32,020 nucleotides of DNA, taken from positions 1 through 32,020 of the forward strand of contig WRLJ01000001.1 in the NCBI GenBank assembly GCA_009777685.1. The letters are read 5' to 3'. Position numbers and translations under genes: made by a program. Position 1 is the first letter of the stretch, and each line of letters begins with the position of its first letter. Origin of the DNA: Oscillospiraceae bacterium. Lineage in GTDB: Bacteria; Bacillota; Clostridia; Oscillospirales; UBA929. The notes below the pieces were generated by a model. It was not told the origin of the DNA and searched no databases. It worked only from the letters and a program-made list of their open reading frames with translations. Positions 546-22,612 of the stretch are shown piece after piece.

Positions 546-559
546 CGGGACACGCGCAA

Positions 560-1216: not shown

Positions 1217-1267
1217 AAGCAGCCTCCTCTTGGCGGAGCGGAACGCTTCATTCCGCCCCGTCTGATT

Positions 1268-2887
1268 TTATGGAATCGCGCCGGTTCCCTTGTAGCGCAG
1301 TACAAGCATGGTGATATCGTCGGCTTGCTCCGCGCCCTCGGCGAATCGGTCGATCTCGCGTTTGACGGATACCGTAAAGTCCTGCAAGGACAGCCCCCCA
1401 GAGCCGTCCGATACCAGCCGGTTTGCCGTTTCCAGCAAGCGGGGGTCGGAAAACAGGCTGTTTTCGCGGTTGACCGCCTCGGTCACCCCGTCTGTATACA
1501 GAAACAGCTCGCCGCCGGGAACCAGGGTGGTTTCATGCGGCGTATACCGCATATCCTCCATGCCGGCCAGGACAAACCCGACCTTGGAGGTCAGCCAGCC
1601 GAACTGCCCGCCGGACCGCAGCAGCGGCGGGTTGTGCCCGGCGTTGACGAAGTCGAGCCTGCCGGTGGGGATATCGAGATAGCCCATGAACGCCGTAACG
1701 AACATGCCCGCCTCGTTGCCCTCGCACAGCAGATTGTTGACGGTCTCAAAGACCTCCCTGGGGCTTTTGCCGGACTGGGCGTTGTTTTTAATCAGCGTCT
1801 TGGCGATGACCATAAACAGCGCGGCGGGGATGCCCTTCCCCGACACGTCGGCCATGACCAGGGCCAGGGTGTTTTCGTCGATGAAGAAGAAGTCGTAGAA
1901 GTCGCCGCCCACTTCCTTGGCGGGCTGCATACTGGCATAGAGGTCAAACTCGGAACGCTCGGGGAAGGCGGGGAAGATGCCCGGCAGCATACTGGCCTGA
2001 ATCTGCGTGGCGACGTTCAGCTCGGTGGCAATCCGCTCCCGGTCGGCGGTGACGGCCGCCAGGTTTTTCATGTAGAGCCGGATATCGCCCGCCATGCGGT
2101 TAAAGCTCTCCGCCATCGTTTGCAGCTCATCGCCGGTGCGCGGGACCCCGAAGGCCCGCAGCTGCCCGTCCTCGGAGCTGAAGCCCTCCATGTGGCGCGA
2201 CAGGCGCACGACGGGGCGCAGAATCTGGCGGTGTATGAGCAGCAGAAGGACGGCCAGAAACACCAGGACGATGCCGAGGGTCAGCAGCAGGAGCCGCACG
2301 GTTTGCAGCGTGATTTCGCGCAGAATACGGTCCATCGAGATATCGGCCCCCACCACCGCGGTGATGGCGCCGCCGGCCGTGTACACGGGCGCGTAGGCGG
2401 ACGCCAGCCAGCCGTATTCGCTGTTGGTGACGACCGCGCCCTCCGTGGCGCGCCCGGTCAGGTAGGTGTCCAGGACGATCCCATAGACCTCGTCCTCGCC
2501 GGACTCCTCGCCCAGCCCGGCAATCAGCGCGGCGTCGCCGCCCTCGGAGAGAATGTCAAATATGTAAACGCAGTTGTTGACCTCCGTATCGGGCCTGACG
2601 ACATACAGGTAGCTCAGCCCGAAAACGCCCTTCAATTCCGTCAGCAGCGCGTAGGCCGCCTCATACTCGCCGTCCGCGCCGTTTTGCAGATAGCCCTCCA
2701 CGCTGTCCCCGTTGACCAGCGCGGACGCCGCCCGGGCCGCGCTGAGGGCCAGCTCGGTGTACCGCTCCTCCACCTGCCTGTAGCTGATGGAATAGACGGC
2801 ATACCCGACGCTCAGCGACAGCAGCAGTCCCATCGCGACAAAAACGGCGGTCATTTTCCCTTTAACGCCCAGCTTAATCGTTTTCAT
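1268..2887 (-). CDS. Membrane sensor PP2C/SpoIIE-family serine phosphatase (N-terminal TM, extracytoplasmic Cache-like domain, TM, HAMP, PP2C)
   Basis: The start was trimmed to the ATG at 2887 (MKTIKLGVKGKMTAVFVAMG.., signal/TM). HAMP-like segment is HRQILRPVVRLSRHMEGF...MAESFNRMAGDI. PP2C/SpoIIE motifs are GGDFYDFF, ADVSGKGIPAALFM, NAGHNPP and LYTDGVTEA. Confidence 0.85.
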   Translation of the reverse strand: MKTIKLGVKGKMTAVFVAMGLLLSLSVGYAVYSISYRQVEERYTELALSAARAASALVNGDSVEGYLQNGADGEYEAAYALLTELKGVFGLSYLYVVRPDTEVNNCVYIFDILSEGGDAALIAGLGEESGEDEVYGIVLDTYLTGRATEGAVVTNSEYGWLASAYAPVYTAGGAITAVVGADISMDRILREITLQTVRLLLLTLGIVLVFLAVLLLLIHRQILRPVVRLSRHMEGFSSEDGQLRAFGVPRTGDELQTMAESFNRMAGDIRLYMKNLAAVTADRERIATELNVATQIQASMLPGIFPAFPERSEFDLYASMQPAKEVGGDFYDFFFIDENTLALVMADVSGKGIPAALFMVIAKTLIKNNAQSGKSPREVFETVNNLLCEGNEAGMFVTAFMGYLDIPTGRLDFVNAGHNPPLLRSGGQFGWLTSKVGFVLAGMEDMRYTPHETTLVPGGELFLYTDGVTEAVNRENSLFSDPRLLETANRLVSDGSGGLSLQDFTVSVKREIDRFAEGAEQADDITMLVLRYKGTGAIP

Positions 2888-3455
2888 CGCCCACCTCCGG
2901 TATTTCAGCCAGGTATATCTCAGCGGCGCACACACACGCTTCCCCGCAAACGGGGCAGTGGAAGCCCATCGCGTGAAGGTCCCTGTAGAAGTTTTCGTAC
3001 CGCCCCAGGCGGATGCCCCCGTCAAACGCGGCAAAGACCTTGCGCGCCGGCGCGCTGCCGTCCGGGTAAATCCAAAACTCGTTTAAGGCCAGCTCCGCGC
3101 CCCGGCGGCGCAGTTCCGCGATCATGGCCGCGCAGAGCCTGCCCGCCAGACCGAGGCGGCGGTACTCCCGCTTGACCGCGACCGTGTCCCCGGTGTATAC
3201 GGTCCGGCCCTCCGACAGACGCCCGATCCGGGCGGCCAGCTCCGGGGGGCATCCCGGCAGGGCGATGCCCTTCACATAGACGAGCGCGCCGGCAAACATA
3301 CCGCCGACCGTACACTTCAGCGCGATATTGTCCGGGCTGGCCAGCACCCGTTCAAAATGCGGGCGGACCCCTTTGCCGTAGAACAGGGCCTCCTCATTGA
3401 GGGCCACCAGGTCATCCAGGTCGGCAAGCGTCGCGTGCGAGATGTCGGCGTTCAT
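2874..3455 (-). CDS. GNAT-family N-acetyltransferase with a C-terminal CPxCG Cys cluster
   Basis: The start was trimmed to the ATG at 3455 (MNADISHATLADLDDLVALNEE). The acetyl-CoA binding-like motif is VAVKREYRRLGLAGRLCAAM. The C-terminus has HCPVCGEACVC. There is a 4-bp ATGA overlap with the upstream gene stop and a 14-bp overlap with the downstream PP2C start. Confidence 0.75.
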   Translation of the reverse strand: MNADISHATLADLDDLVALNEEALFYGKGVRPHFERVLASPDNIALKCTVGGMFAGALVYVKGIALPGCPPELAARIGRLSEGRTVYTGDTVAVKREYRRLGLAGRLCAAMIAELRRRGAELALNEFWIYPDGSAPARKVFAAFDGGIRLGRYENFYRDLHAMGFHCPVCGEACVCAAEIYLAEIPEVGDEND

Positions 3456-6382
3456 GCGTTCCCTCCCCTGGCCCCCCGGCCCAGCAGAGCAAAGAGCAGG
3501 AACAGCGCGGCGGAGACCAGCCCGATCACCCAGGCCGCCAGCCGGTAGCCCAGCGCCAGCGCCGCGCCGAACAGCAGCGGCCCCGCCGTTTGCGAGAGAT
3601 TGTCCAGCAAGGAGTATATGCCCATGGACTTCCCGGTCCCAAACGCCTTTACCGCGCGGATTGAGGAGAAATACACCCCCTGCGCCACATAGCCGAAGCA
3701 GGCGGCGGCGCTCATCATAAACACGGCGGCGGCGGCGCTCTGAAACGAGGGCCGCAGCGCGAACAGAATCAGCCCGGCGGCGCACAGGCCGCCCGCGAGG
3801 AGGTTGGTTCTCTTCCCCCCCAGCCGTTTCAGCAGGGCGGCGGACAGGGCGGGCGCGATAAAGATACCGGCCGCGCCGGAGAACAGGAGCGCCTGGCCGA
3901 TGCCGACCTCGGAAACGCCCTGCTCGCTGGCGTACAGGGGAAAGGCGAACTCGCGGAAATACAGGATGACCATAAAGGGCGACATCATAAACAGCAAGAA
4001 GGAAAACACGCTCTTGTCACGCAGAAACCGCGCCAGACCCATTTCCTTTTCCTCCAGGGCCTCCATCTGCGCGCTGAGCGACAGCCCGAAACTCCGGGGC
4101 GCGCTCTTGAAGGCAAGCCACAGCGCGGGGAGCAGCGCCGCCGCCGACAGCAGGAAGGTCAGGGCATAGCCGCCCGCCTGGGCGGCGTAAGCGCCCGCCG
4201 ACGTGCCCGCCACGATGCCGGCGACCATGCCGATGTTGACGCCGGAAAACAGGGCGCTCTTCCGCCGTTCCTCCTCATAGGCGGCCGGAAGCGTGTTGCC
4301 CGCCACCACCACCACGCCCAGGCCGGCCCCGGAAAGGCTCAGTCCGGCGATCAGCAGCGCGTAATGGTTCATCGTCACGGCGGCGGCGGTGAGGAAGAGC
4401 CCGGCGATTTCCGTCACCGTCCCGCACACGAGCGAGAGGTTCATGCCCAGCCGGTCAATCAGCACGCCGCCCGCCACCGCCGCGATGGCCACAAAGAACA
4501 GCTTGGCGGACAGCGGCAGGGCCGCGCCCATCGACAGCGACCACCCCAGCCCGGAATCGGAGAAGATGCGGCCCGAAAGCTGCGGGATAAACGCCGTGCA
4601 GGCGCTGTCGGCCAGAAACGCCAGGAAGATGAGCGGCCGGATCAGCTCCGGGACATAGCGGCCCTTCCCCGAAAGCCGCCGCAGGGCGGACAAAGGCTCA
4701 AGGATGGCGGAGACCTCGGAAAACACCAGGATGAACATCACCAGCAAAACGGCGGTGGACAGGGCGATGTCCCGAATCTGCCGCTGGGTGCGCAGGGCCG
4801 CCGTGTCCAGATTGTATCCCATTTCGACCAATCCGGCAATCGCGCCCTCCGAGCTGAAGACCGGCGCGGCGGCATACGTCCACGACCCGTTGACATCGGA
4901 AAAGCTCTCAAACAGATAGGGCGCGCGCCCCTCAAAGACGTCGCTCCAGCCCTCGGAAATTTCAGCGATGGGGTACATCACGCCCACCGTGTCCTCGTAG
5001 TCCAGCACGGAATACACCACGCCGTCCACGACCTTGTGCAGGACATAGTACAGATAGCCGCCCTGCTCGTACGCCGTTTCGCAGATCGGGTCCAGCGCGG
5101 CGCGGACGCGGTGATAGGCCGGGCCGCCGTAGTCCTCCGGCGCGTTCAGGGAGGCAAAATCATCGCCGATCGTCATGCCGGAAATGCCGCTGACGGCCAG
5201 CGTCATCTGCGTGATGCTAAACTCCTTTTCCTGGGCCTCGGTCTGGATCGACGCGCTGAAGATACTGGCCGCCACGATCACCGAGGTCAGCGTGACGGAA
5301 ATAATGATGATGAACAGATACTTCGACTGGCCGACGCCGCCCTTCAGGACGCGCAGGCCCAGACGCCCCAGCAGGAACAGGACCGCGGCGGCCGACGCCG
5401 CCGCCAGCAGCCAGACCAGAAGCCGCCGCAGGAAATACTCCGCGGTGTATTCCGCCGAATCCCCGGCAAACCGCGTCTCTCCCCCGGCGGAGACCTGGTA
5501 AACGCTCTGGCCGTCGGTGAAGCTGACCAGCCCGGTTTCGTCCGTGTCCAGCCGGAAGATAATTCCATCTCCCTCGAAAAACACGGAGCCGTCGGCGCGG
5601 ACGATGCTCTGCGAGGCCAAGTCGGTGATGTACAAAGAGCCGCTTCCGTCCGGCGCGGCCTCGCGCGGGATCCAGCCCGCCCGTCCCAGGCCGTCCAGCG
5701 CCGCCAGCCCGCCCGCCGCGTCCTCCGCGTAAATCACGCCGTCCTTGCTGACCGCGTATAGGGTATCCCCAAAGGCGTCATAGACGGCGCCGTACAGGTA
5801 CGGGGCGTTTTCGGCGGACACCGAGCGCAGGAGCGCGGGGGTTTCCCCGGCCAGGCTGTTCACCAGGCTGTACAGCTCCAGCGCGCCGTCACGGGCCATC
5901 AGGAAGGTCAGGCGGCCGTCATGGGAGCGCAAATCCAATATATTGCCATGCTGGAACGGCTTTTCCTCTTCGTAGGGCCGCTCGAACAGGACCGTTTCAA
6001 AGCGCCCGCCGGCGGAGAAGCGCAAAATCCGCTCCGTCTCGACCCGCGTGCTTCCTTCCTCGTATTTCACATCGGCGATGTAAATTTTTCCGCCGTGCGC
6101 GGCGGTATGCTCGGCGTAGAAAAACCCTCCGGTTTCCTTGGCCCCGGTGATGGCGGCGCTGACCTTATGCCCGCTGAGAACCGTCACGCGGGTCTTGCCG
6201 CCGTCTGTCACCAGCAGCAAGTTCCCGGCGGTGACCGCGTGGGAAGGGTCGGCGAAAACCCGTCCCCGGTCAAAGGGGTTTTCCGCCAGCCGCTCACGCC
6301 CGGCGAAGACCGTCAGCAGCGCCGCGGCCAGGAGCGCGCCCGCAATATATACCGCCCGTTTCCGTGGGTTTCGGATTGCCAT
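3452..6382 (-). CDS. Large fusion protein: N-terminal TM, ~300 aa beta-propeller-like extracytoplasmic domain, TM, Cache-like domain, and a C-terminal MFS-type 12-TM transporter
   Basis: 976-aa ORF with RBS GAGGTG 8 nt before the ATG at 6382. The N-terminal region has repeated strand-like segments (GKIYIADV, GSLYITDL, LYAVSKDGVIY). The middle has a Cache-like pattern (GGYLYYVLHKVVDGVVYSVLDYED...WTYAAAPVFSSEGAIAGLVEMGYNL). The C-terminal ~430 aa is polytopic and Gly/Ala-rich, MFS-like (LIDRLG, LLKRLGGKRT loop motifs). Confidence 0.7.
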   Translation of the reverse strand: MAIRNPRKRAVYIAGALLAAALLTVFAGRERLAENPFDRGRVFADPSHAVTAGNLLLVTDGGKTRVTVLSGHKVSAAITGAKETGGFFYAEHTAAHGGKIYIADVKYEEGSTRVETERILRFSAGGRFETVLFERPYEEEKPFQHGNILDLRSHDGRLTFLMARDGALELYSLVNSLAGETPALLRSVSAENAPYLYGAVYDAFGDTLYAVSKDGVIYAEDAAGGLAALDGLGRAGWIPREAAPDGSGSLYITDLASQSIVRADGSVFFEGDGIIFRLDTDETGLVSFTDGQSVYQVSAGGETRFAGDSAEYTAEYFLRRLLVWLLAAASAAAVLFLLGRLGLRVLKGGVGQSKYLFIIIISVTLTSVIVAASIFSASIQTEAQEKEFSITQMTLAVSGISGMTIGDDFASLNAPEDYGGPAYHRVRAALDPICETAYEQGGYLYYVLHKVVDGVVYSVLDYEDTVGVMYPIAEISEGWSDVFEGRAPYLFESFSDVNGSWTYAAAPVFSSEGAIAGLVEMGYNLDTAALRTQRQIRDIALSTAVLLVMFILVFSEVSAILEPLSALRRLSGKGRYVPELIRPLIFLAFLADSACTAFIPQLSGRIFSDSGLGWSLSMGAALPLSAKLFFVAIAAVAGGVLIDRLGMNLSLVCGTVTEIAGLFLTAAAVTMNHYALLIAGLSLSGAGLGVVVVAGNTLPAAYEEERRKSALFSGVNIGMVAGIVAGTSAGAYAAQAGGYALTFLLSAAALLPALWLAFKSAPRSFGLSLSAQMEALEEKEMGLARFLRDKSVFSFLLFMMSPFMVILYFREFAFPLYASEQGVSEVGIGQALLFSGAAGIFIAPALSAALLKRLGGKRTNLLAGGLCAAGLILFALRPSFQSAAAAVFMMSAAACFGYVAQGVYFSSIRAVKAFGTGKSMGIYSLLDNLSQTAGPLLFGAALALGYRLAAWVIGLVSAALFLLFALLGRGARGGNA

Positions 6383-6417: not shown

Positions 6418-6843
6418 TCAGAGCTTTTTTCGTATGAGAAGGATGTTTTCACTGTTTTCGTAACGGTATTCCGCATGGTCCGTCAGCTTCTTGACGATGA
6501 AGATCCCCAGCCCGCCGATCTCCCGCTCTTCCACGGGCAGCGACGTGTCCGGGTCCGGCCTGGCCAGAGGGTCATACGGGGTTCCGCCGTCCCGAAACTC
6601 GGCTTCAAAGATGTCCGGCCCGGCCGTCAGGCGGACGCGAACCTCCCCCTCCCCGCCCGGGTAGGAATAACTCGCGATGTTGATGAATATTTCCTCCGCC
6701 GCGATCAGCATCGCGTTTTGGCCGTCCTCGTCCATCCCCGCCTCCCGCGCCGCGCCGCCCACAAACGCAAGCAGGTCCTCCAGGCGGTCACGCCGCGCGG
6801 GAATCGCAAGATGCCAATGGACGGCATCATATAAATCTTTCAC
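6418..6843 (-). CDS. RsbW/SpoIIAB-like anti-sigma regulatory factor (serine protein kinase, HATPase_c_2)
   Basis: 141 aa with a GTG start at 6843. N-box-like AAEEIFINIASYSY, G1-like FRDGGTPYDP and G2-like EIGGLGIFIVKKL. The size and architecture are typical of partner-switching kinases. Confidence 0.8.
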   Translation of the reverse strand: MKDLYDAVHWHLAIPARRDRLEDLLAFVGGAAREAGMDEDGQNAMLIAAEEIFINIASYSYPGGEGEVRVRLTAGPDIFEAEFRDGGTPYDPLARPDPDTSLPVEEREIGGLGIFIVKKLTDHAEYRYENSENILLIRKKL

Positions 6844-6855
6844 ACAAATCCCCCG

Positions 6856-8181
6856 CTAACCCTCGCAGGCAAAATAACTGAACATATCCCCGCCGCCGTT
6901 CCGCCGGACCGCGGCGTCGATAAAGCCCGCCGTGGTATCCAGCGCCTGGGTCAGCCCGGCGACCGTTACCGGCCCGCCCGCCTCCCGCAGTCCCTTCAGC
7001 CGGTAAAACAGCGCGTCACGGGATACGTCGGTGATGGCTTCCATCTCCGCGGTAAAGTCCTCGATGCCCTTCCGCAGATACGCGTACGCCTCGTCCGCCG
7101 ACTTCGCGGCCAGCAGCTTCGACAGCGCCAGCGAGTCCAGGTTCATCTTCTCAAAGTTCTGCGCCCTCGCCGTCGCGGAGATGTTCAAGCGGACAATCAC
7201 GCCCAGGATCATCTTGTTCAGCAGCCCCTGGTTGAGGTCCTTGCGCCCCCGGAAGACCTCAAAGAGATCGTCCAAATACCGGATCGCGGTTTCCGCGTCG
7301 CCGTCCATCGTCGCCTCAATCAGCCGCCGCTCCTTGTGGTCCGGGTAGGCGTATTCGATGTCGCCGGCGTGCAGATAGTCGATGTGGATGACGTTGTTAT
7401 GCCCGAAAATCTGCGTGGCCCGGCAGGCGCGGTCCGCTTCCCGGCGGCTGATATGCAGCTCGCCGGCCTTGTTCCGCGTCCGGCCGATCCCAATGGAGAA
7501 CATGGCGTCGGTTTCCCGGAACAGCCGGAGGCGAATCTCGTTGGCCACTGACAGGGTATGCTCCTTGATGGGCGATTTGTCCAAAATCAAGTAAAACTCG
7601 CTGGCGTCAGAGGCAAGCAAGCGAACGGCCTTGAGGTCGGACGCCGCCCGCCGCAAGGTCCGCAGGACCTCCTCCCGGTAGGAATCCGAGGAGACGCACA
7701 AAACGGCATACCCCGGCGTCCAGTCAAACGACTGGGCCAGCAGGACGGCCGCCTCCTCGTGGGTCAGGAAATGGCTCTTCATCAGCAGCCGCAGGGTCCG
7801 CTCCCCCTCCGCCTCCGGGTCGGGCGCGGGGGCGGGCGGCGGCGGCGCCACCTTGCCGCAATCCTTCAAGGCCGACGCAAAGCTCCGGGTGAGCGTGACC
7901 CTCGGGATGCGGGACAGGATCAGCGCCTTCGGCACGTCCCCCACCACCATCAGCTTAACGCGCGGAAAAAATGAAATGACCGCCCGCAAGACCGGAATGG
8001 CCTTCTCGTCCACAAGATTGGCCGCGCATAACAGAATATGCGCCTTCTCGCGCGCCAGCAGGCGCACCATCTCCGAGAGCGTAAGGCACTCCGGCAAAAC
8101 GGCCAGCCCTTCCTTTCTCAGGCTGTCCCGCCACATCCTCCCCTCGGGGGCTTTCCGGTTGGCAACAAGAACACTTTGCAT
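6856..8181 (-). CDS. Regulator with a pseudo-receiver N-terminal domain, a degenerate GGDEF-like middle domain and a C-terminal half AraC-like HTH
   Basis: The start was trimmed to the ATG at 8181 (MQSVLVANRK). The receiver-like fold has no acidic phospho-acceptor at the expected position (HILLCAANLVDEK). The GGDEF-like block reads YAVLCVSSDSY...RLLASDASEFYLIL...MFSIGIGR...READRACRATQIFGHNNV, with SDASEF replacing GGDEF. The C-terminus TVAGLTQALDTTAGFIDAAVRRNGGGDMFSYF resembles one AraC-type HTH. Confidence 0.5.
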   Translation of the reverse strand: MQSVLVANRKAPEGRMWRDSLRKEGLAVLPECLTLSEMVRLLAREKAHILLCAANLVDEKAIPVLRAVISFFPRVKLMVVGDVPKALILSRIPRVTLTRSFASALKDCGKVAPPPPAPAPDPEAEGERTLRLLMKSHFLTHEEAAVLLAQSFDWTPGYAVLCVSSDSYREEVLRTLRRAASDLKAVRLLASDASEFYLILDKSPIKEHTLSVANEIRLRLFRETDAMFSIGIGRTRNKAGELHISRREADRACRATQIFGHNNVIHIDYLHAGDIEYAYPDHKERRLIEATMDGDAETAIRYLDDLFEVFRGRKDLNQGLLNKMILGVIVRLNISATARAQNFEKMNLDSLALSKLLAAKSADEAYAYLRKGIEDFTAEMEAITDVSRDALFYRLKGLREAGGPVTVAGLTQALDTTAGFIDAAVRRNGGGDMFSYFACEG

Positions 8182-8289
8182 AATCCCGCGTTCACTCCTG
8201 TCAGGTTTTAACTTTGCGGTAACAGCATACACCCGCAGATATACACGTGCCAGTATACAGCAGGAAAAAATTAGAAACCACCGCCCAGG

Positions 8290-8445: not shown

Positions 8446-8952
8446 GTGGAGCGTCCGGAAATGGCCGAAATCTATGAAACGTACTTCTCAAAAATTTATA
8501 ATTTTATCTTTTACAAGGTCATGCACAAGGAAATCGCCGAGGATTTGGTCAGCATGGTCTTTCTCAAAGCGCTGGAAAAATATAGCTCCTACGATATGGA
8601 CAAAGGCGCCATCTCCACGTGGCTGTACGCCATCGCGCAAAATCTGCTCACCGACTATTACCGGACCCGCAAAATCCCGGTCAGCCTGGACGAAGCCACC
8701 GGCGACCTGGCGCTTTGCGTAGACTTTGAGGAGCAGTCCTCGCTGATCGCGGACGAGACGCGGCGCGAGCTGTATCTGGCGCTGGCCGAACTGGACCCGC
8801 GCACGCGCGACATCCTTTCGCAAAAATATTTTCTGGAGAAGAGCATCCGCCAGATCGCGTCGGAAAGGCAAATGAACGAAAGCACCGTCTCCACCATCCA
8901 CAACCGCGGGCTGAGCAAGCTGCGCGCGAGGATGGGCGGCGGCGTTCTCTGA
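8446..8952 (+). CDS. ECF-type sigma-70 family RNA polymerase sigma factor
   Basis: Region 2-like: IYNFIFYKVMHKEIAEDLVSMVFLKALEKY...STWLYAIAQNLLTDYYR. Region 4-like HTH: LDPRTRDILSQKYFLEKSIRQIASERQMNESTVSTIHNRGLSKLR. The GTG at 8446 is preceded by GGGGAGGG; an alternative ATG is at 8461. Confidence 0.85.
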   Translation: MERPEMAEIYETYFSKIYNFIFYKVMHKEIAEDLVSMVFLKALEKYSSYDMDKGAISTWLYAIAQNLLTDYYRTRKIPVSLDEATGDLALCVDFEEQSSLIADETRRELYLALAELDPRTRDILSQKYFLEKSIRQIASERQMNESTVSTIHNRGLSKLRARMGGGVL

Positions 8953-8958
8953 GTTTGC

Positions 8959-8987
8959 GTGAGCTATCGGAAGGGTTTGGCCGTATA
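8959..8987 (+). promoter_or_regulatory. Candidate ECF-type promoter P1: G-TGAGCT-N16-CGTATA
   Basis: GTGAGCTAT is at 8959-8967 and CGTATA at 8982-8987. The same two boxes occur at an identical 23-nt offset at 21264/21287 and 26438/26461. The architecture resembles the B. subtilis SigW-type TGAAAC-N16-CGTATA. It lies about 48 nt upstream of the ATG at 9035. Confidence 0.5.
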
Positions 8988-9480: not shown

Positions 9481-11463
9481 TTGAACACATGGATCCGTAA
9501 AATTCTGACGTGGCTGCTCGGCTGTTTCTTTGCCGTGGCGGTGATGGGCTACATCCTGATCGTTCTGATCGAGAAGGGCGCGGAAACCGTCCGGACGCAG
9601 GACTACAGCCTGCTCTGGGAGCCCAGTCTGTTTTTGCGCACGGAGACCTACATCTGGGGCGGGGCCGCGGCTGTGCTGCTGGTCGTCCTCTACTTCGTCT
9701 ACGGCAACAATGACGCCCGGCGCGCCAAGCGCATGATGAAGAGCAAGGCCAAGGGCGTGGAGGGCGCGCTGGAAAACTCCCGCTTTATGAATGACGAGGA
9801 GCGCGACTACAACTTCGCGCCGTACCGCTACAGCAAGCTCAAGGAAAGCAAGAAGGACGGCGTGCCCGTGCGGGCCATCATGGAGGGCAAGGAGCTGAAG
9901 GTCAACCTGGCCCCGCCCATGCACGGCCTGATTATCGGCGCCACCGGCAGCGGCAAGACCACCACCTTTATCAATCCGATGGTCCAGATCCTGGGCGAGA
10001 CCCAGGCCGCCTCGTCGATGATTCTGACCGACCCCAAGGGCGAGCTGTTCCAGATGCACTCCCAGAAGCTGAAGAAGAAGGGGTACAAGGTCATGGTGCT
10101 GGACCTGCGCGACCCCTATTCCTCGTACCGCTGGAACCCGCTGGAGGGTATGTTCCGCATGTATACCGAGTACCTGGAGGGCGGCAAGGGCATTTTCCGG
10201 CGGCGCGACTCGGCGGTCAGCTCCGGCCTGGAGCTGCACGACCCCCCGGAAGCCTTCGGCGAGTGCTGGTATGAGTACCAGGGCACAGCCTACGCCTCCA
10301 GCAAGGAACTGAGCGGCATCATCAAGGTCAAGCGCCAGCGCATTTATGACGAGATGTACGAGGACCTCAACGACCTGGTCAGCGTGCTTTGCCCCATCGA
10401 GTCGGCGGACGACCCCGTGTGGGAAAAGGGCGCGCGCTCGGTCATTATGGCTACCTTGCTGGCTATGCTGGAGGACAGCGAGAACCCGGATTTGGACATG
10501 ACGATGGAGAAGTTCAACTTCTTCAACCTCAACAAGGCCATCGCCAACTCCGAAAACGAGTTTGCGGCCCTGAAGGAGTATTTCAAAGGACGCGACACGC
10601 TCTCCAAGGCCGTCACCCTGTCCCGGCAGGTGCTGTCCGCCGCCGACACGACGCTGGCTAGCTATATGTCCATCGCCTTTGACAAGATGAGCATGTTCAA
10701 TGACGAGGGTATATGCGCGCTGACCTCGGCCACCGACATCAACCCCGACGACTTCGCCGACCGGCCCACCGCGCTGTTTTTGAAAATCCCCGACGAGAAG
10801 GACACGCGCCACGGCCTGGCGGCGGTCTTCGTGCTGTGCATCTATAAGGCGCTGATTAAAAAGGCGTCCGCGCGCGAGGACTTGTCGCTGCCGCGCAATG
10901 TCTACTTCATCCTGGACGAGTTCGGCAACATGCCGAAGATTGACAAGTTTGACAAGATGATCACCGTCGGCCGCAGCCGGAAAATCTGGTTTAACATGGT
11001 GGTGCAGTCCTACGCCCAGCTCAACAACGTCTACGGCGACACCGTGGCCGACATCGTCAAGAGCAACTGCGGCATCAAGATGTTCATCGGCTCCAACGAC
11101 ATCGAGACCTGCAAGGAGTTCTCCGAGCTGTGCGGCAACATGACCATCTCCACCAGCAGCGTCTCCAGCTCCACGGGCGACAAGTCCGGCAATTTGTCGG
11201 TCTCGACGCAAATCCAGACGCGCCCGCTGATTTACCCGTCCGATCTGCAAAAGCTGAACAATAAGGAAAGCACCGGCAACTCCATCATCGTCACGTTCGG
11301 CAACTATCCGCTGCAAACCAAGTTCACGCCCAGCTACAAATGCCCGCTGTACCAGTTCGGCATGATGGACCTCACCGAAGCGCGCAGCAATGTGTTCTAC
11401 AGCGAGGAGGTCTACTACGACCTGGCCTACCGCAATCAGCTTATCCTGACAAAGGACGGTTGA
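9481..11463 (+). CDS. VirD4/TraG-family type IV coupling protein (T4CP ATPase)
   Basis: The TTG start at 9481 is preceded by GAGGTGA. There are two N-terminal TM helices. Walker A is GLIIGATGSGKTTT, the family motif is LTDPKGELF and Walker B is VYFILDEFGNMPKI. Confidence 0.85.
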   Translation: MNTWIRKILTWLLGCFFAVAVMGYILIVLIEKGAETVRTQDYSLLWEPSLFLRTETYIWGGAAAVLLVVLYFVYGNNDARRAKRMMKSKAKGVEGALENSRFMNDEERDYNFAPYRYSKLKESKKDGVPVRAIMEGKELKVNLAPPMHGLIIGATGSGKTTTFINPMVQILGETQAASSMILTDPKGELFQMHSQKLKKKGYKVMVLDLRDPYSSYRWNPLEGMFRMYTEYLEGGKGIFRRRDSAVSSGLELHDPPEAFGECWYEYQGTAYASSKELSGIIKVKRQRIYDEMYEDLNDLVSVLCPIESADDPVWEKGARSVIMATLLAMLEDSENPDLDMTMEKFNFFNLNKAIANSENEFAALKEYFKGRDTLSKAVTLSRQVLSAADTTLASYMSIAFDKMSMFNDEGICALTSATDINPDDFADRPTALFLKIPDEKDTRHGLAAVFVLCIYKALIKKASAREDLSLPRNVYFILDEFGNMPKIDKFDKMITVGRSRKIWFNMVVQSYAQLNNVYGDTVADIVKSNCGIKMFIGSNDIETCKEFSELCGNMTISTSSVSSSTGDKSGNLSVSTQIQTRPLIYPSDLQKLNNKESTGNSIIVTFGNYPLQTKFTPSYKCPLYQFGMMDLTEARSNVFYSEEVYYDLAYRNQLILTKDG

Positions 11464-11465
11464 CC

Positions 11466-13079
11466 ATGAATAGGAAAACGCTCATCCTCATACTGGCCGT
11501 CGCGGCGCTTTGCGTGGTTGTTGCCATGCTCGCCGTTCCGGCGCTGGCGGGTCCGGACGACTCCGCGTTCCCCTCTCCTGAGCCGAGCGCGTCTGTTTCC
11601 CCTGCCCCCGCTCCGGGCCAGACTCCGCCGGGCCAGTCCCCCCCAGACCAGACCCCCCCGGGCCAGACCTCGCGGCCGGACGGGAGCGACGCCCCAAGCC
11701 CGACGTCGTCCTCCGCGCCGCCGCCGTTCCCGGATTGGTTTAACCAGCTGACCGACATGCCGGCGTGGCTGTTCACGGTCGATGAATTTCCCGCGTGGTT
11801 TTACGAGCTGCCCTCCGAGCCGGACTGGTTCCGGCAGGCCGCCCGGATTCCAAGCTGGTTTTACCAGATCACCGAAATTCCCGCCTGGTTCTATCCGCCG
11901 GAGCCGTGCCCCTGCGGGATGGAGTCGTGCGAGTGCGCCGGCGGGCCGGAGGACTGCGACTGCGCGGACCCGCTTTGGCCCGGCCCGGAGCCGCTGATTT
12001 GCCCCTGCGGTATTCCCAACTGCCTGTGCGAGGGCGACCCGGACTGCGAGTGCGCCGGGCCGCGGCCCGACCCGGACTGCCCCTGCGGGATGCCGGACTG
12101 CCTGTGCGAGGGGGAGCCGGACTGCGAGTGCGACCCCTACACCCCGATCCCGCCCGGCTTCTGCCCCTGCGGGATTCTGGGCTGTGACTGTGAGGGCGGG
12201 CCGGACTGCGACTGCGCGGAGGGGGGCTTCATCCTGCCCGATCCCGATCCCATCGACAACCCCGAGCTGCCGGTGAGCCTGCCGCATACCGTCCCGATTC
12301 CGGGCGGGGTGGGGGAGATTCGGTCGAGCGTGCCCCACGATCTGGTCACCAACACCGCCGTCAGCGTGGAATTTCCCTCGCATCTGTACATCACCCGGGA
12401 CGGCGAGCTGTTCTCCTGGACCCCCGGGGACGTGCTGGCAGACCCCGGATTTTATGAAATCGGCTCCCCGGACGTCGCCCCCGCCCCGCTGTTCCGCTTT
12501 CGGATTGTGCGCGGCCCGGTCAACGACTTGCCGGAATATACCGCGCCCAACGGCTTTTTTATCCGTGAGGTGAGCTACAACGAGACCTTGTTCGTAGTCC
12601 ATAGTATCTCCTACCCGCTGGAAGAGGACGGCGCGTACTTCCTGATTTTGCAGGAAGGCAGCCCGGAGAATTTTGTGGAAGTCCCGGAGGACGTCGACCC
12701 GGAATCCGGCTGGGTTCCGCCCGAAATGATTTATGTGTCTGTGGAGATTGACCGCACGCCGCCCGTTCTGACCTTTGAGGGGCTGGACGACGAGGATACG
12801 GCCTACGGCCCGGTCAGCTGGAGCGCCGACGAGCCGAACGTCTCCATCCGGGTGGTGCGGAACAACAAGCACTATGACTATAACCTCTGGGAGCTGTCCG
12901 AGACCGGGCAATATTTAATCATTGCCTCGGACGCGGCGGGCAACGAGAGCCTATATGCCCTGACCCTCCGGTATGACATGAACGCGGCCGCCATTTGGAC
13001 AATTGTGATTGCCGCCCTCCTGCTGTCGTCGCTGGCCGGGTATTTGATTTACTACCGCCGGCATCTGCGGGTGCGGTGA
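11466..13079 (+). CDS. Secreted, C-terminally membrane-anchored repeat protein (signal peptide, Pro-rich linker, six Trp decapeptide repeats, four CPCG Cys-rich repeats, Ig-like C-terminal region, TM anchor)
   Basis: The start was trimmed to the ATG at 11466 (MNRKTLILILAVAALCVVVAMLAVPALAG), 2 nt after the VirD4-like stop. Repeats are P[DAS]W[FL].. x6 (aa 89-146) and CPCGxxxCxCxGxP[DE]DC[DE]C x4 (aa 148-251, 24 Cys). The C-terminal TM is AAIWTIVIAALLLSSLAGYLIYY followed by RRHLRVR. Confidence 0.75.
   Translation: MNRKTLILILAVAALCVVVAMLAVPALAGPDDSAFPSPEPSASVSPAPAPGQTPPGQSPPDQTPPGQTSRPDGSDAPSPTSSSAPPPFPDWFNQLTDMPAWLFTVDEFPAWFYELPSEPDWFRQAARIPSWFYQITEIPAWFYPPEPCPCGMESCECAGGPEDCDCADPLWPGPEPLICPCGIPNCLCEGDPDCECAGPRPDPDCPCGMPDCLCEGEPDCECDPYTPIPPGFCPCGILGCDCEGGPDCDCAEGGFILPDPDPIDNPELPVSLPHTVPIPGGVGEIRSSVPHDLVTNTAVSVEFPSHLYITRDGELFSWTPGDVLADPGFYEIGSPDVAPAPLFRFRIVRGPVNDLPEYTAPNGFFIREVSYNETLFVVHSISYPLEEDGAYFLILQEGSPENFVEVPEDVDPESGWVPPEMIYVSVEIDRTPPVLTFEGLDDEDTAYGPVSWSADEPNVSIRVVRNNKHYDYNLWELSETGQYLIIASDAAGNESLYALTLRYDMNAAAIWTIVIAALLLSSLAGYLIYYRRHLRVR
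12570..12598 (+). promoter_or_regulatory. Weaker fourth match to the P1-P3 motif (GTGAGCTAC-N14-CGTAGT) inside the surface-protein gene
   Basis: GTGAGC is at 12570-12575 and CGTAGT at 12593-12598, the same 23-nt offset as P1-P3. The -10-like box is degenerate and the location is intragenic. Confidence 0.2.
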
Positions 13080-13490
13080 GGAGGAACCCGCCCTAAGGCT
13101 CCTTTCCTAAAGGAGCTGTCGGCGAAGCCGACTGAGGATTGACAAAGTTCCCGTAGCGTTACCCCCAAGCGCGTACCCCGCCCTAAAATCCTCCGTCACG
13201 CCTTGCGGCGTGCCACCTCCTTTACGAAAGGAGGCTCACGCGCCCTAAGGCTCCTTTCCTAAAGGAGCTGTCGGCGAAGCCGACTGAGGATTGACAAAGT
13301 TCCCCCGCAAGCCCCCAAGCGCGTGCCCCGCCCTAAAATCCTCCGTCACGCCTGACGGCGTGCCACCTCCTTTACGAAAGGAGGCTCACGCGCCCTAAGG
13401 CTCCTTTCCTAAGGAGGAACCCGCGCCCTAAGGCTCCTTTCCTAAAGGAGCTGTCGGCGAAGCCGACTGAGGATTGACAAAGTTCCCGCA
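13079..13490. repeat. Tandem structured intergenic repeats, period about 150-152 bp, built from two hairpin-rich sub-units
   Basis: Unit A (CGCCCTAAGGCTCCTTTCCTAAAGGAGCTGTCGGCGAAGCCGACTGAGGATTGACAAAGTTCCC) occurs at 13089-13152, 13241-13304 and 13424-13487, with a truncated copy at 13391. Unit B (..CCCCAAGCGCGT.CCCCGCCCTAAAATCCTCCGTCACGCC....GGCGTGCCACCTCCTTTACGAAAGGAGGCTCACG) occurs twice. Four stems are visible: GCTCCTTT/AAAGGAGC, GTCGGC/GCCGAC, CACGCC/GGCGTG and CCTCCTTT/AAAGGAGG. Confidence 0.85.
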
Positions 13491-13571
13491 CAGCCCCCCC
13501 CCCAATGTCTTTCGGCCCGTTCCCTCGGGTCGTTGGCATAGATATTTTACCATGAAAAGGAGGTGCAACAC

Positions 13572-13910
13572 ATGTACGGAGCGTTCAATTCCTTGGTCCT
13601 CACCGCCGCGGCGGCGGCGCCCGATCTCGGGAAGGTCGTGTCTCCGATTACCACGCTGCTGGAGACCATCTTTACCGTGGCCATCCCTTTGGTGGGCGCG
13701 ATCGGCGCAATCTACTGCATCCTTCTTGGCCTGAAGCTGGCCAAGGCCGACGAGCAGCAGGACCGCGAAAAATCCAAGCACGCCCTGAAAAACGCCATCA
13801 TCGGTTTTGTGCTGATCTTTGTGCTGGTCGTCGCGCTGCGCATCGGACTGCCCATCATGAGCGAATGGGCCGACAGCCAAACGGCGACGCAGACAGAAGC
13901 CCCGGCGTAG
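13572..13910 (+). CDS. VirB2/TrbC-like small two-TM (pilin-like) T4SS protein
   Basis: RBS AAGGAGGTG lies 6 nt before the ATG at 13572. The 112-aa protein has a hydrophobic leader, TM1 (IFTVAIPLVGAIGAIYCILLGL), a short charged loop (KLAKADEQQDREKSKHALK) and TM2 (NAIIGFVLIFVLVVAL). It sits immediately upstream of the VirB6-like and VirB4-like genes. Confidence 0.6.
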   Translation: MYGAFNSLVLTAAAAAPDLGKVVSPITTLLETIFTVAIPLVGAIGAIYCILLGLKLAKADEQQDREKSKHALKNAIIGFVLIFVLVVALRIGLPIMSEWADSQTATQTEAPA

Positions 13911-13990
13911 CTGTCCAACTGAACAGGGCTGCCGCGGAGCGCAACCGCAATCCGTCGGAAGGCGCGGCAGCCCGGGAGTGAGTGTTTGTC

Positions 13991-16975
13991 ATGTTTATGT
14001 TCAAATTTTATATCGCGGCGTTGTTCACGGGCATAAAACGCCACGTTTTTTTCCGCGCGGCCACCACCTTTGAGTGGGACAAGGCCGGCATCCCGACCAT
14101 TCCGGATACCGGCGAGAAGGTCGCGGACCTGATCATCTCCGCCCTGAACTGGGTCTTGTCCTTTGTCTGGGAGACGGTGATCGGCGGCTTCATTGATATG
14201 ATCCGCGCGTTTTTGTATTCCATGCTGGTCATTCCGCTGTTACTCGTGCATATCTTTGGCGGGGCGGTGGATTTGTTCTCCGGCTTGCAGGCGTTTGAAA
14301 CCGAGGTCAAGACCATCGCCCCGGCGGCGGCGTTTCCCGACGTCCCGTACAACGGCTTTCTCCGGCTGGACAGCCTGTATCTGTTCGATCACTGGGTCGA
14401 ATACGACAACGGCGGCGGAAGCCAGCCTGAACCCACCGTCGCGTTCAATGATTTCAAGGACGCCATGTTACAGCTCTGGCACGGCAACGGGGACACGAAA
14501 TCCAGCACCAAATCCAGGGTTCCGGAGTCTATCAAAAACAACAACGGCAGCTATTATCTTGAGCAGGCCATCAGCGTATACCGCAACGAGCCGGACATGC
14601 TCTGGACGGAAAAGGGCGCGAAAAGCAAAGCGACCGATGTGCATAACTACTTCAAAGCCTATGGCGGCAGGGATGCGCACACCAGGGACTTGGGCCTGGA
14701 TTTCGACGAGATGACGACAGCGGAATTCCGGGACTGGTATTTCCGCTTCTTTTTCTACAACTCCACCGAGATCGAGCGGGGTATCATCCTGGTGCATCCG
14801 CGGGATGTCTACGGGGACGGGACCAACTATTTGTACGGCGGGTCGTTTGAGTATAGCGGCAGTCGCTGGAACAACGACAAACCGAGAGATTGGGATAACG
14901 GCTCCACGGTCTACCAGCGGGTAAGAGGGTTTTATACCAGCGAAGGCTATGGCGAACGGACGCCCCTGACCCGGGGCGACGAGGCCATGCGGTATCACAA
15001 GTTTCTCCCCGACTGGGGCGATAACAACCAGACCATCATCCGCCATGCCGTCATACACAATATATACCACTGGAAAGGCACTTTTAGTACATATCGCTAC
15101 TATACCTATAAACTCTACACCTATTACCGGGCCTCGCTGCTCTGGGAAGACTTTGTCCAGAATATGCCCGGCATTGTGGGCGACTACAGCATCACGAATC
15201 TCTATGACTGGAACCGCTACACCGACACCTTCCAGGAGATCATGCGGCAAAACGGCATCAACCCCGGCTGGGGGCAGATGTACGAGTACGTCGCCAACAG
15301 CCTCCGCTCGGGCACGCCCATGTCGCCCAAAACCGAAACCAAGCGCTATACCATGCTGGACCTCTTCTTTGCCCAAAACGCCGTGTCTTATGCGTTCTGG
15401 GGCGTCACCCTGATCGCGATGGCGCTCTGCATCGCCTTTTCGATCATCGCCGTCGTCCGCTCGATGGGCGACCTGCAGCAAAAGCGCCCGCTGGGGCAGG
15501 TGGTCGGCTCCATCGGCAAGGCCATGCTGACCTTCCTGCTGATCCCCGTGATGGTGATCGCCGCGGTGAATGTCTCCGGGGTCCTGCTCCAACAGCTGGA
15601 CTATACGATGGCGGCCGCGTCCGTGGGCGGCCTTACAGGCGACACCAGCTCCGACGGCCGCAACACCAGCGGCTTTGTGACCGAGCGCTTTGACGTCCCC
15701 AAGGGCATCATGCTGGGGGCCATCACGCTGGACAGCATCCGCGACCCCAACCCCAACAGGCCCCTCTCCCCCGCCCAGCGGCGGGAGGAATTTGAAAAGG
15801 TGAAGGCCGACATTGTGTCGGGCCGCCTGGCCTGGGCCAACGCCGGGGAGGTGGTCAAGCGGGTGGACGTCTTTAAGATGTATTTGCTGCCCTCCATTGT
15901 CGCCGCGTGGTTCTCGGCGTTCATTATGATTATGATCTTAATGATTTTCATCCGGCGGATCTTCGAGATGGTGATGCTGTACATTGTCTCGCCGCTGTTC
16001 GTGGCCCCCATGCCGCTGGACGAGGGGCAGAAGTTCAAGGCGTGGAAGGACGCCTTTATCGGCAAGGCCATCTCGGGCTTCTCCTCCATCCTGATGCTCC
16101 GGCTGTTCCTGATGTTCGTGCCGATGATCTGGCAGAGCGGAATCCGCTTTGCCTCGGACGAGTTCGCCGACGTGATGCTGAAGGTGCTGTTTATGCTCGG
16201 CGGGCTGTACACGGTGTATAAGTCCCACACGATGATCACGGGTCTGGTCAGCCAGCAGGCCGCCTCCGCCGAAACGGAGAGCAGCACGGGCCTGGTCGGC
16301 GCGTACACGGTGGGCGTGGCCACCAGCGCGCTCCAGCAGACCATGACCAAAATGGCCGGCACCGTGGCCGGCAAGCCCTTCGACCTCGCCGACAGCCATC
16401 TGGACAAATTGTTCAAGCCCGGTAGCGGCGGCGGAGGAAGCTCCTCTGGCGGCGGCGGTGGCGGTGGAGGCGGCTCCGGCAACAAGTTCAGCGGCGACTC
16501 CGGCGGTTCCGGCGGCGAGTCCCCCGACTTCTCGGGCGGAGGAGGAGGCGGCGAAAGCTCCGGCGGCGGAGAAAGCTCCGGAGGCGGCGGCGGAGGCGGA
16601 GGAGGCTCCTCTGGCGGAGGAAGCTCCTCTGGCAGCTCAAACCGCTTCTCCGGCGGAGGAGGCGGAAGCTCCTCCGGCAGTTCGTCCGGCGGCGGCAGTT
16701 CCTCTGGCGGCGGAGGCTCCTCCGGCAGCTCGTCGTCGGAGATCAACCCCAACACCCATTCCAGCTACCAAAAAAAGGGGCTGTTTGAGGACGAGTTTGA
16801 AAACGAACCCTTCGAGGGCCGCCTGTTCTCCGACCCCCCGCCGCCCCCGGCCCCGTCCAACCCCGCGCGCGACCGCTTCATGGCCGCCTATTCGGGGGAA
16901 AGCAGCGGCTCCCAGCAGTTCAACAGCCGCCCGGGCCTGTTCACCGACGAGTTTGAAGACGACGATGATGGTTAA
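13991..16975 (+). CDS. VirB6-like polytopic membrane protein with a large aromatic-rich extracytoplasmic insert and a Gly/Ser-rich, acidic C-terminal tail
   Basis: About 994 aa; the start is uncertain (GTG 13982, ATG 13991 or 13997). It has multiple TM helices. The conserved block MLYIVSPLFVAPMPL and SYAFWGVTLIAMALCIAFSIIAV are shared with the next gene. A ~350-aa Trp/Tyr-rich segment lies between TMs. The C-terminal ~105 aa is Gly/Ser low complexity, followed by two GLF[ET]DEFE motifs. Confidence 0.6.
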   Translation: MFMFKFYIAALFTGIKRHVFFRAATTFEWDKAGIPTIPDTGEKVADLIISALNWVLSFVWETVIGGFIDMIRAFLYSMLVIPLLLVHIFGGAVDLFSGLQAFETEVKTIAPAAAFPDVPYNGFLRLDSLYLFDHWVEYDNGGGSQPEPTVAFNDFKDAMLQLWHGNGDTKSSTKSRVPESIKNNNGSYYLEQAISVYRNEPDMLWTEKGAKSKATDVHNYFKAYGGRDAHTRDLGLDFDEMTTAEFRDWYFRFFFYNSTEIERGIILVHPRDVYGDGTNYLYGGSFEYSGSRWNNDKPRDWDNGSTVYQRVRGFYTSEGYGERTPLTRGDEAMRYHKFLPDWGDNNQTIIRHAVIHNIYHWKGTFSTYRYYTYKLYTYYRASLLWEDFVQNMPGIVGDYSITNLYDWNRYTDTFQEIMRQNGINPGWGQMYEYVANSLRSGTPMSPKTETKRYTMLDLFFAQNAVSYAFWGVTLIAMALCIAFSIIAVVRSMGDLQQKRPLGQVVGSIGKAMLTFLLIPVMVIAAVNVSGVLLQQLDYTMAAASVGGLTGDTSSDGRNTSGFVTERFDVPKGIMLGAITLDSIRDPNPNRPLSPAQRREEFEKVKADIVSGRLAWANAGEVVKRVDVFKMYLLPSIVAAWFSAFIMIMILMIFIRRIFEMVMLYIVSPLFVAPMPLDEGQKFKAWKDAFIGKAISGFSSILMLRLFLMFVPMIWQSGIRFASDEFADVMLKVLFMLGGLYTVYKSHTMITGLVSQQAASAETESSTGLVGAYTVGVATSALQQTMTKMAGTVAGKPFDLADSHLDKLFKPGSGGGGSSSGGGGGGGGGSGNKFSGDSGGSGGESPDFSGGGGGGESSGGGESSGGGGGGGGGSSGGGSSSGSSNRFSGGGGGSSSGSSSGGGSSSGGGGSSGSSSSEINPNTHSSYQKKGLFEDEFENEPFEGRLFSDPPPPPAPSNPARDRFMAAYSGESSGSQQFNSRPGLFTDEFEDDDDG
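16421..16737 (+). repeat. Coding low-complexity GGN/AGC (Gly/Ser) tract
   Basis: About 317 bp of ggc/gga/agc/tcc repeats encode GSGGGGSSSGGGGGGGGGSG... They generate spurious Pro/Glu-rich (minus strand) and Ala/Pro-rich (other frame) ORFs in the track. Confidence 0.9.
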
Positions 16976-18278: not shown

Positions 18279-18298
18279 AACATTTGGAGGCGGCGCGT

Positions 18299-21263: not shown

Positions 21264-21292
21264 GTGAGCTATAACAGCGGAAACGCCGTATA
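21264..21292 (+). promoter_or_regulatory. Candidate ECF-type promoter P2: G-TGAGCT-N16-CGTATA
   Basis: GTGAGCTAT is at 21264-21272 and CGTATA at 21287-21292. The boxes and spacing are identical to P1. It lies in the 108-nt gap between the STAS gene and the first gene of the six-gene array. Confidence 0.5.
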
Positions 21293-22570: not shown

Positions 22571-22612
22571 AGGACGGCTCACCGCCGTCCAAACGGAAAA
22601 GAGGAGACAGCT

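Follow-up and report, generated by a model that had tools for sequence, protein, structure and literature searches.

A recurrent TGAGCT-N16-CGTATA motif as the probable promoter read by an ECF-type sigma factor in a clostridial type IV secretion locus

Introduction

What switches on the type IV secretion system (T4SS) and the adjoining orphan genes on a 32,020-nt contig of an Oscillospiraceae bacterium (Clostridia, Oscillospirales; contig WRLJ01000001.1 of assembly GCA_009777685.1)? This contig, which was analysed in its entire length and is called the window below (positions are numbered on its forward strand), carries a gene for a sigma factor of the extracytoplasmic function (ECF) type, genes for a VirD4-VirB4 secretion apparatus and two units of genes for orphan proteins, here referred to as cargo. 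A bipartite motif, TGAGC[T/G]-N16-CGTATA, stands before the VirD4 unit (P1), the first cargo unit (P2) and the second cargo unit (P3). An earlier note on this DNA proposed that the sigma factor directly drives both apparatus and cargo through these sites. Our comparison of the window with related loci suggests that P1-P3 are very probably ECF-type promoters, recognised by RNA polymerase with the product of the sigma gene at 8446-8952 as its sigma subunit.

Results

Motif copies in the window

The pattern TGAGC[T/G]-N16-CGTATA has exactly three matches in the window (starting at 8960, 21265 and 26439, all on the plus strand), whereas each of 100 dinucleotide-preserving shuffles of the window contained none. 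The gap between TGAGC and CGTATA is 17 nt in all three copies, the base preceding TGAGC is always G, and the G of GTGAGC and the C of CGTATA are always offset by 23 nt. All three sites are intergenic or lie at a gene end; in P3, the TGA of the motif (26439-26441) is the stop codon of the upstream open reading frame (ORF) of 636 aa. The last A of CGTATA is followed by a start codon after 48 nt (P1, ATG 9035, start of the small ORF-VirD4 unit), 73 nt (P2, ATG 21365, start of the first cargo unit) and 56 nt (P3, ATG 26522, start of the second cargo unit), and each of these start codons is preceded by a GGAGG-like ribosome-binding site. The three positions, the identical offset and the distance of 48-73 nt to a start codon with a ribosome-binding site are thus as the earlier note had described them; the start that it implied for the first unit (ATG 9035) is correct as well, the listed start being a GTG at 9026 in the same frame. 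The flanks and the 17-nt spacers of P1, P2 and P3 are mutually unrelated, and the sites are therefore not duplicated segments.

A position weight matrix (PWM) was built from 20 unique instances of the motif (the three of the window and 17 further ones from related loci). With this matrix the three window sites reach 23-33 bits, the next best site of the window 10.8 bits, and the shuffles up to 13 bits. Searches of the window for further copies with up to two mismatches, with the PWM and with a flexible spacing of 15-19 nt gave nothing above the level of the shuffles.

Conservation of the motif in related loci

Loci for comparison were collected through VirB4 (L001-L008), through alignment of the sigma factor (L009-L014) and through exact look-up of homologues of the sigma factor and VirD4 (L041-L060); L001 and L041 lie on the same contig. 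The loci of the sigma clade share a common gene order, i.e. sigma factor, small ORF, VirD4, a gene for a protein of ~440 aa, pilin, VirB6-like gene(s), VirB4, a STAS-domain protein and variable genes.

Enrichment was assessed with the window-derived pattern TGAGC-N17-CGTAT only. In the non-redundant loci of the sigma clade (236 kb, window excluded), 18 matches were found, compared to 0.39 expected from shuffles (maximum 3). No match was present in 26 loci of other ECF sigma factors (168 kb; 0.18 expected) or in sister T4SS loci that do not possess the sigma gene (66 kb; 0.09 expected). The register TGAGC-N17-CGTATA is invariant in all 20 unique copies, and their consensus is tTGAGCTrTAa-N12-CGTATA. 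Positions outside the search pattern are conserved, too (T at +5 in 19 of 20 copies, a purine at +6 in all 20, A at +8 in 15, and in 17 an A following CGTAT), and the 12 intervening spacer positions carry no information content. Conserved boxes around a free spacer are consistent with the footprint expected of a bipartite promoter.

At least 12 independent loci of the sigma clade have kept the motif at syntenic positions, and it is present in 12 of the 15 lineages carrying this clade; in the remaining three, either only a deviant site was found or the contig ends early. Copies syntenic with P1, i.e. directly after the sigma stop codon or overlapping it, occur in L010, L011, L012/L047, L013, L041, L049 and L052. 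Copies downstream of the STAS gene, syntenic with P2, are found in L001 (12963), L047 (18007) and, with a spacer longer by one base, L003 (13029). The cargo genes behind P3 are not conserved in the relatives, and hence this site has no syntenic counterpart for comparison. Furthermore, copies precede the pilin gene (L047 14401, L052 14504, L011 4949), the gene for a HATPase_c_2 protein (L041, minus strand, 6236) and the operon of the sigma factor itself (L014 7348, L044 7681, L054 9160, and twice as the variant TGAAGT-N16-CGTATA in L051). The orientation of the motif is always co-directional with the downstream gene.

In many homologues (L010, L013, L041 and L052 among them) the -35 box, TTTGAGCTATAA, encodes the C-terminal F-E-L-stop of the sigma factor. 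The window and L012 have the same box past the stop codon of the sigma gene. As the box is kept both inside and outside the coding sequence, it is the DNA box rather than the protein tail that is conserved. In L001 (12963), too, the TGA of the -35 box terminates the preceding gene, there the STAS gene. Note that the weak site of the window at 12570 (see Table 1) has strong syntenic counterparts inside genes of L010 (5402), L041 (13976) and L049 (13794), and that all of them encode a conserved peptide, V-S-Y-N/E-G/E...V-L/I/V. Coding constraint may explain these intragenic "pre-pilin" sites, which we do not count as evidence.

Distribution of the motif among loci with sigma factor or T4SS

Two kinds of loci separate the sigma factor from the secretion system. 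In L014, a sigma factor with 44% identity to that of the window is encoded in a two-gene operon preceded at 137 nt by a perfect copy of the motif; no T4SS genes were found within 18 kb, the neighbours being genes for a dCache-HAMP-PP2C protein, a STAS protein and a MatE transporter. The sister T4SS loci L056-L059 (L056 and L057 of the Enterocloster asparagiformis type, L058 and L059 of Lachnospiraceae, thus human-gut-type Clostridia) encode VirD4 proteins with 69-73% identity to that of the window and no such sigma factor. The motif is absent from these loci, their best PWM score (12.9 bits) being at chance level. Upstream of VirD4 they possess genes for LytTR response regulators with HATPase_c_5 kinases, or for a LytTR protein together with a STAS protein and an Rce1-like protease, and the regulatory input appears to have been swapped between the lineages (ECF sigma factor versus LytTR). 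In L058 and L059, the T4SS locus adjoins the ftsZ-spoIIGA-sigE-sigG region. Among the loci compared, the motif thus co-occurs with the sigma clade and not with the sister systems devoid of this sigma factor.

The sigma factor and its putative partner-switching proteins

The ECF assignment of the earlier note was borne out: the sigma factor possesses the sigma2 and sigma4 domains only and scores 87.3 bits against the ECF superfamily model TIGR02937 (cut-off 42.9). All named sigma subfamily models (BldN, SigW, SigX and SigM among them) score below their cut-offs. The best of them is the BldN family model TIGR02952 (106.5 bits, cut-off 206.45), and the SigW models reach 60.0 and 56.1 bits (cut-offs 209 and 243.1, respectively). 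Among the structures in the PDB, 6dxo and B. subtilis SigW (5wuq, E = 3.8e-10) are closest. In a database of 5.8 billion proteins, the sigma factor belongs to a clade of 34 proteins with at least 54% identity, followed by a drop to 42% or less; the loci of this clade are all from termite-gut-type metagenomes or from metagenome-assembled genomes of Oscillospiraceae and Defluviitaleaceae. Across the clade, there is hardly any variation in the predicted -35 recognition helix, MNESTVSTIHNRGL. Substitutions within MNESTVSTIHNRG (E-K-T and ENTVYT) are found together with the deviant -35 boxes of L051 (TGAAGT) and L009 (TGAAC); with n = 2, this apparent covariation was discarded as evidence.

Besides the sigma factor, the window encodes a HAMP-PP2C phosphatase, a STAS-domain antagonist and a HATPase_c_2 protein with the fold of RsbW/SpoIIAB anti-sigma kinases. 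Comparable partner-switching sets are present in L005, L014, L041 and L054. The HATPase_c_2 gene adjoins the sigma gene in L013, L052 and L054, the STAS gene follows virB4 in L001, L003, L004, L007, L008 and L047, and the PP2C gene is located directly after the STAS gene in L004, L007 and L008. The STAS protein of the window contains a serine in the sequence ..TYISSAGL.., which we take to be the position of the phosphoserine of SpoIIAA/RsbV. Since the three components recur with the sigma clade, and since the HATPase_c_2 gene of L041 is itself preceded by the motif, PP2C, HATPase_c_2 and STAS together probably gate the activity of the sigma factor. This recurring set suggests that an RsbW-type anti-sigma factor acts on a two-domain sigma factor, which would be an unusual pairing. 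The description of the locus in the earlier note as a self-contained regulon overlooked these three genes.

Cargo genes

The products of 401, 293 and 262 aa (21365-22570, 26522-27403 and 27439-28227) are distant paralogues and have in common an N-terminal ..KT[LV]ED.. and a C-terminal [SG]F-x-DS...[IV]...L (F-x-D-S motif), the latter of which could be a secretion signal. Searches of the six cargo ORFs against Pfam and NCBIfam, even at E <= 1, revealed no significant domain; the 636-aa product has a sub-threshold match to OTU proteases (residues 453-557). The operon downstream of the STAS gene in L001 (13038-19801) codes for an orphan protein of 822 aa, a CvpA-like protein, a protein of 541 aa that contains the polymorphic-toxin domain Ntox11 (4e-27), and a protein homologous to the OTU-like C-terminal region of the window protein. 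The content of this operon hints that the T4SS may export toxins or effectors.

Gene content of the window

The features of the window are listed in Table 1. The VirD4, VirB4, VirB6-like and pilin-like proteins are all present and constitute a T4SS set of the type found in the Mycoplasma integrative and conjugative element (MICE) and in conjugative transposons (CTn). The window ORFs scanned gave no match to a relaxase or recombinase domain; among the compared loci, recombinases were found only in L044 and L052, several kb upstream. Between the pilin gene and virB4, L047 has no large VirB6-like paralogue of the MMCAP2_0566 family, L001-L004 and L007 have at least three, and this variable copy number makes the loci differ by up to ~10 kb. 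A protein of the CvpA (colicin V production) family recurs as well (window 560-1216, minus strand; L001 15527-16195; L003 13091-13819; L051 1-201), and in two cases its gene is located directly downstream of the post-STAS promoter.

Table 1. Features of the 32,020-nt window (forward-strand positions).
Feature	Position	Strand	Remarks
CvpA-like protein	560-1216	-	
HAMP + SpoIIE-type PP2C phosphatase	1268-3034	-	Pfam SpoIIE 2e-44, HAMP 1e-6
MFS transporter	within ORF 3452-6382	-	Pfam match to ORF residues 585-910; true start of the gene uncertain
HATPase_c_2 protein, RsbW/SpoIIAB-type anti-sigma kinase fold, candidate anti-sigma factor	6418-6843	-	Pfam 1.5e-22
GGDEF_2-domain protein, 458 aa	6856-8232	-	
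ECF-type sigma factor, 168 aa, proposed reader of the motif	8446-8952	+	Pfam Sigma70_r2 and r4/r4_2 only; TIGR02937
P1, promoter-like motif	8959-8987	+	GTGAGCTAT-N14-CGTATA; 7 nt past the sigma stop; 23.0 bits (PWM)
Conserved ORF, 70 aa	9035-9247	+	kept in L009, L010, L011, L013 and L046
ORF, 67 aa	9271-9474	+	in the P1 unit
VirD4 coupling protein	9481-11463	+	CD1115 family, 293 bits, cut-off 250
Conserved 440-580-aa protein (579 aa in the window)	ends 13079	+	
Weak motif-like site, probably non-functional here	12570-12598	+	GTGAGCTAC..CGTAGT, inside the 579-aa gene; 2 mismatches; 9.9 bits, i.e. shuffle level
Repeat of about 150 nt, ~3 copies	~13089-13500		between the 579-aa gene and the pilin gene
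T4SS pilin-like gene	13563-13910	+	
Two VirB6-like membrane proteins	13982-16975; about 16990-18278	+	MMCAP2_0566/Mbov_0396 family
VirB4	18284-20941	+	Mbov_0397 family, 588 bits, just under the cut-off of 590
STAS-domain anti-sigma-factor antagonist, last gene before P2	20957-21256	+	Pfam 1.3e-15; TIGR00377 59.9 bits, cut-off 53.45
P2, promoter-like motif	21264-21292	+	GTGAGCTATAAC..CGTATA (GTGAGCTAT-N14-CGTATA); 8 nt past the STAS stop; 32.9 bits, top score of the window
First cargo unit: orphan ORFs of 401, 634 and 636 aa	21365-26441	+	downstream of P2
P3, promoter-like motif	26438-26466	+	GTGAGCGGTAAC..CGTATA (GTGAGCGGT-N14-CGTATA); 25.0 bits (PWM)
Second cargo unit: orphan ORFs of 293, 262 and 424 aa	26522-29536	+	downstream of P3
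13-bp all-G:C hairpin, T-runs on both sides	29545-29575	unassigned	probably a terminator closing the cargo block
rpsF	31688-31984	+	

In the repeat between the 579-aa gene and the pilin gene, identical copies of the 36-mer GGAGCTGTCGGCGAAGCCGACTGAGGATTGACAAAG are located at 13112, 13264 and 13447, and one of the ~150-nt units folds as a long multi-hairpin structure (-59.6 kcal/mol, z = -4.9). The repeat was not found in any of the 60 compared loci, and a scan of the whole window against Rfam, repeat included, gave no family. It occupies the place where relatives have the pre-pilin copy of the motif. An 890-aa ORF on the plus strand (503-3175) was rejected as a gene: it has no family match, its tblastn "homologues" lie opposite real genes, and its reading frame is an artefact of lying antisense to the minus-strand PP2C gene.

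Discussion

The motif has the geometry of an ECF promoter (two boxes, a fixed spacer and an invariant CGT in the -10 box), and each in silico test that could have contradicted its connection with the sigma factor gave a result consistent with it. The suggestion of the earlier note that the sigma factor drives apparatus and cargo is thus favoured by the association of the motif with the sigma clade, by the ECF geometry and by synteny; what did not hold is the idea that this regulon is self-contained.

Several points weigh against the assignment of P1-P3 to the locus sigma factor. The arguments for the pairing of sigma factor and motif come from comparative genomics, with the family loci and two control sets standing in for a genome-wide search, as the source genome is represented by one contig. 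Because the family loci scored with the PWM had also served to build it, the enrichment test was limited to the window-derived pattern. The -35 box TGAGCT has no AAC; an AAC is present only in the downstream extension (..TATAAC) of some copies and in the wrong register. An AAC core in the -35 box is typical of ECF promoters, though not universal. Two close homologues of the sigma factor are followed by deviant sites (TGAAC-N18-CGTATA in L009, TGAGCT..CATATA in L046). In the window itself, nothing above chance was found upstream of the sigma gene (8446); the circuit therefore appears not to be autoregulated here, and an ECF sigma gene not preceded by a copy of its promoter is unusual. Finally, the earlier note placed the motif before each transcription unit, which is true for the VirD4 unit and the two cargo units; in the window there is no copy before the pilin-VirB6-VirB4-STAS block, although relatives do have a pre-pilin copy.

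Could the sites be genuine ECF-type promoters that are read by another ECF sigma factor of the host (e.g., a SigW-like one), with the locus sigma factor recognising something else? The identity of the -10 box with the -10 consensus of B. subtilis SigW, the position of SigW among the closest solved relatives of the sigma factor, and the window sigma gene not being preceded by the motif would all fit. Nevertheless, we consider this improbable: the motif accompanies the sigma clade in most of its lineages, precedes the operon of the sigma factor itself in L014, L044 and L054 and is absent from the sister T4SS loci without the sigma gene, and a second sigma gene is not a conserved component of these loci. 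Even less probable is that the boxes are the site of a non-sigma DNA-binding regulator (e.g., LytTR, LuxR/MalT or PucR-like) or some other protein-binding signal. Additional regulators do occur near the sigma gene (MalT/GerE in L041, LytTR in L046, the GGDEF_2-domain protein at 6856-8232 in the window), but none of them is conserved across the motif-bearing loci, unlike the sigma factor. Moreover, the two boxes do not repeat each other in direct or inverted orientation, their co-directional orientation and their distance to the start codon suit a promoter, and the sister loci with LytTR regulators do not possess the motif.

A housekeeping sigma-A promoter, with TTGAGC as -35 and TATAnn as -10 element, has to be rated lower still. 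It is true that the tTGAGC of the relatives matches TTGACA at four of six positions and that TATAA/TATAT resembles TATAAT. This reading was rejected, as it needs a 19-nt spacer and leaves invariant bases unexplained: neither the C-G in front of TATA nor the GAGC is a feature of sigma-A promoters, and all three window copies have a G before TGAGC. A scan for sigma-70 promoters reported nothing at P1, P2 and P3, and Defluviitaleaceae relatives without the pre-pilin motif have a sigma-A-like TTTACA and an A+T-rich -10-like stretch there instead. The least likely explanation, and one that we find hardly credible, is a similarity without function that arose by chance or as a by-product of duplication or coding constraint. 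The overlap of the -35 box with stop or C-terminal codons of upstream genes and the peptide-encoding intragenic "copy" in relatives could be quoted in its favour; chance is contradicted by the shuffles of the window, by the enrichment in the relatives (18 versus 0.39 expected) and by synteny, duplication by the unrelated flanks and spacers, and coding constraint by the conservation of the box inside as well as outside coding sequence.

If the locus sigma factor does read P1-P3, transcription would start a few bases after CGTATA whenever it is active. From P1, the small ORFs and virD4 would be transcribed, probably with read-through into the pilin, VirB6-like, VirB4 and STAS genes; P2 would drive or boost the first cargo operon (21365-26441) and P3 the second (26522-29536), and the cargo transcripts would end at the hairpin at 29545. 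The HATPase_c_2 protein would be the anti-sigma factor, the STAS protein its antagonist and the HAMP-PP2C phosphatase the input of the cascade. The regulation as such is an ordinary arrangement of ECF sigma factor and promoter. Less ordinary are the extended -35 box lacking AAC, the location of the promoters after the sigma gene in most loci rather than before it, the RsbW-type partner switching, and the target, a relaxase-less Gram-positive T4SS with toxin-like cargo.

A further-reaching scenario is speculative, and we put it forward only tentatively. The sigma factor, controlled by a SpoIIAB/RsbW-type cascade (HAMP-PP2C, STAS, HATPase_c_2), might govern, as master switch, a chromosomal MICE-type T4SS without a relaxase, converted in gut Clostridia from conjugation to the delivery of proteins or toxins. 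The TGAGCT-N16-CGTATA box would then mark the effectors (the orphan paralogues with the common C-terminal motif, the OTU-like and the Ntox11 proteins), as a Gram-positive counterpart of the hrp box of HrpL, and in the sister systems of human-gut Enterocloster and Lachnospiraceae a LytTR regulator would have taken the place of the sigma factor.

For an uncharacterised secretion locus of uncultured termite-gut Clostridia, the motif could serve as a cheap delimiter of the regulon that needs nothing but sequence: any gene behind tTGAGCTrTAa-N12-CGTATA becomes a candidate for an apparatus part, a regulator or a secreted cargo protein. The wiring would be unusual, as an ECF sigma factor and RsbW-type partner switching would control a Gram-positive T4SS whose substrates may be proteins instead of DNA. 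Cultured human-gut Clostridia possess relatives of this T4SS (69-73% identity of VirD4) and could be used for work on the apparatus. Furthermore, the sigma factor and its promoter are a compact, probably orthogonal pair that may be of use for synthetic biology in Firmicutes.

Comparison with known systems

In the literature searched, we found no description of this sigma factor, of its motif or of sigma control of such a T4SS. The promoters of B. subtilis SigW (consensus TGAAAC-N16-CGTATA) are likewise bipartite and of the ECF type, and they agree with the motif in register, spacing and -10 hexamer (CGTATA). The -35 box of the window, TGAGCT (extended: tTGAGCTrTAa), differs from that of SigW at three of six positions and misses the AAC core. 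Furthermore, the locus sigma factor is not a SigW orthologue, it is not accompanied by an RsiW-type membrane anti-sigma factor, and its proposed targets are T4SS and orphan cargo genes rather than envelope-stress genes.

The pilin-like, VirB6-like, VirB4 and VirD4 proteins match the NCBIfam models of Mbov_0395/0396/0397 of MICE and of the VirD4 protein CD1115 of a C. difficile CTn. However, the window locus is chromosomal, with orphan/toxin-like cargo and then rpsF next to it, and no relaxase or integrase was detected in it. To our knowledge, sigma-factor control of MICE/CTn elements has not been described.

The same three folds as in the window (SpoIIE-type PP2C, STAS, HATPase_c_2) make up the SpoIIE-SpoIIAA-SpoIIAB-sigmaF and RsbU-RsbV-RsbW-sigmaB systems. 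The classical targets of SpoIIAB and RsbW are group-3 sigma factors with a sigma3 domain, whereas the only sigma factor of the locus, to which the HATPase_c_2 protein would bind, is a two-domain ECF sigma factor.

ECF sigma factors have been linked to secretion before: the ECF32 group is conserved with genes of the type III secretion system (T3SS) (PMC7826278). It is unlikely that the locus sigma factor is a member of this group. By component type, the bsc T3SS locus of Bordetella resembles the window, as BtrS (an ECF sigma factor) is encoded there together with BtrU, BtrW and BtrV (PP2C, HATPase kinase and STAS, respectively). The partner-switching proteins of Bordetella are Gram-negative ones and control secretion rather than the activity of BtrS, and we regard this system as a second functional analogue. 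The closest one is HrpL (ECF32) with its hrp box in the T3SS of Pseudomonas syringae and Erwinia. HrpL belongs to a different phylum, is itself controlled by two-component and enhancer-binding proteins, and reads a box of other sequence in a Gram-negative T3SS rather than a Gram-positive MICE-like T4SS. Yet here, too, an ECF sigma factor is encoded within a secretion cluster, and its box delimits the secretion regulon by recurring in front of the apparatus operons and the effector genes.

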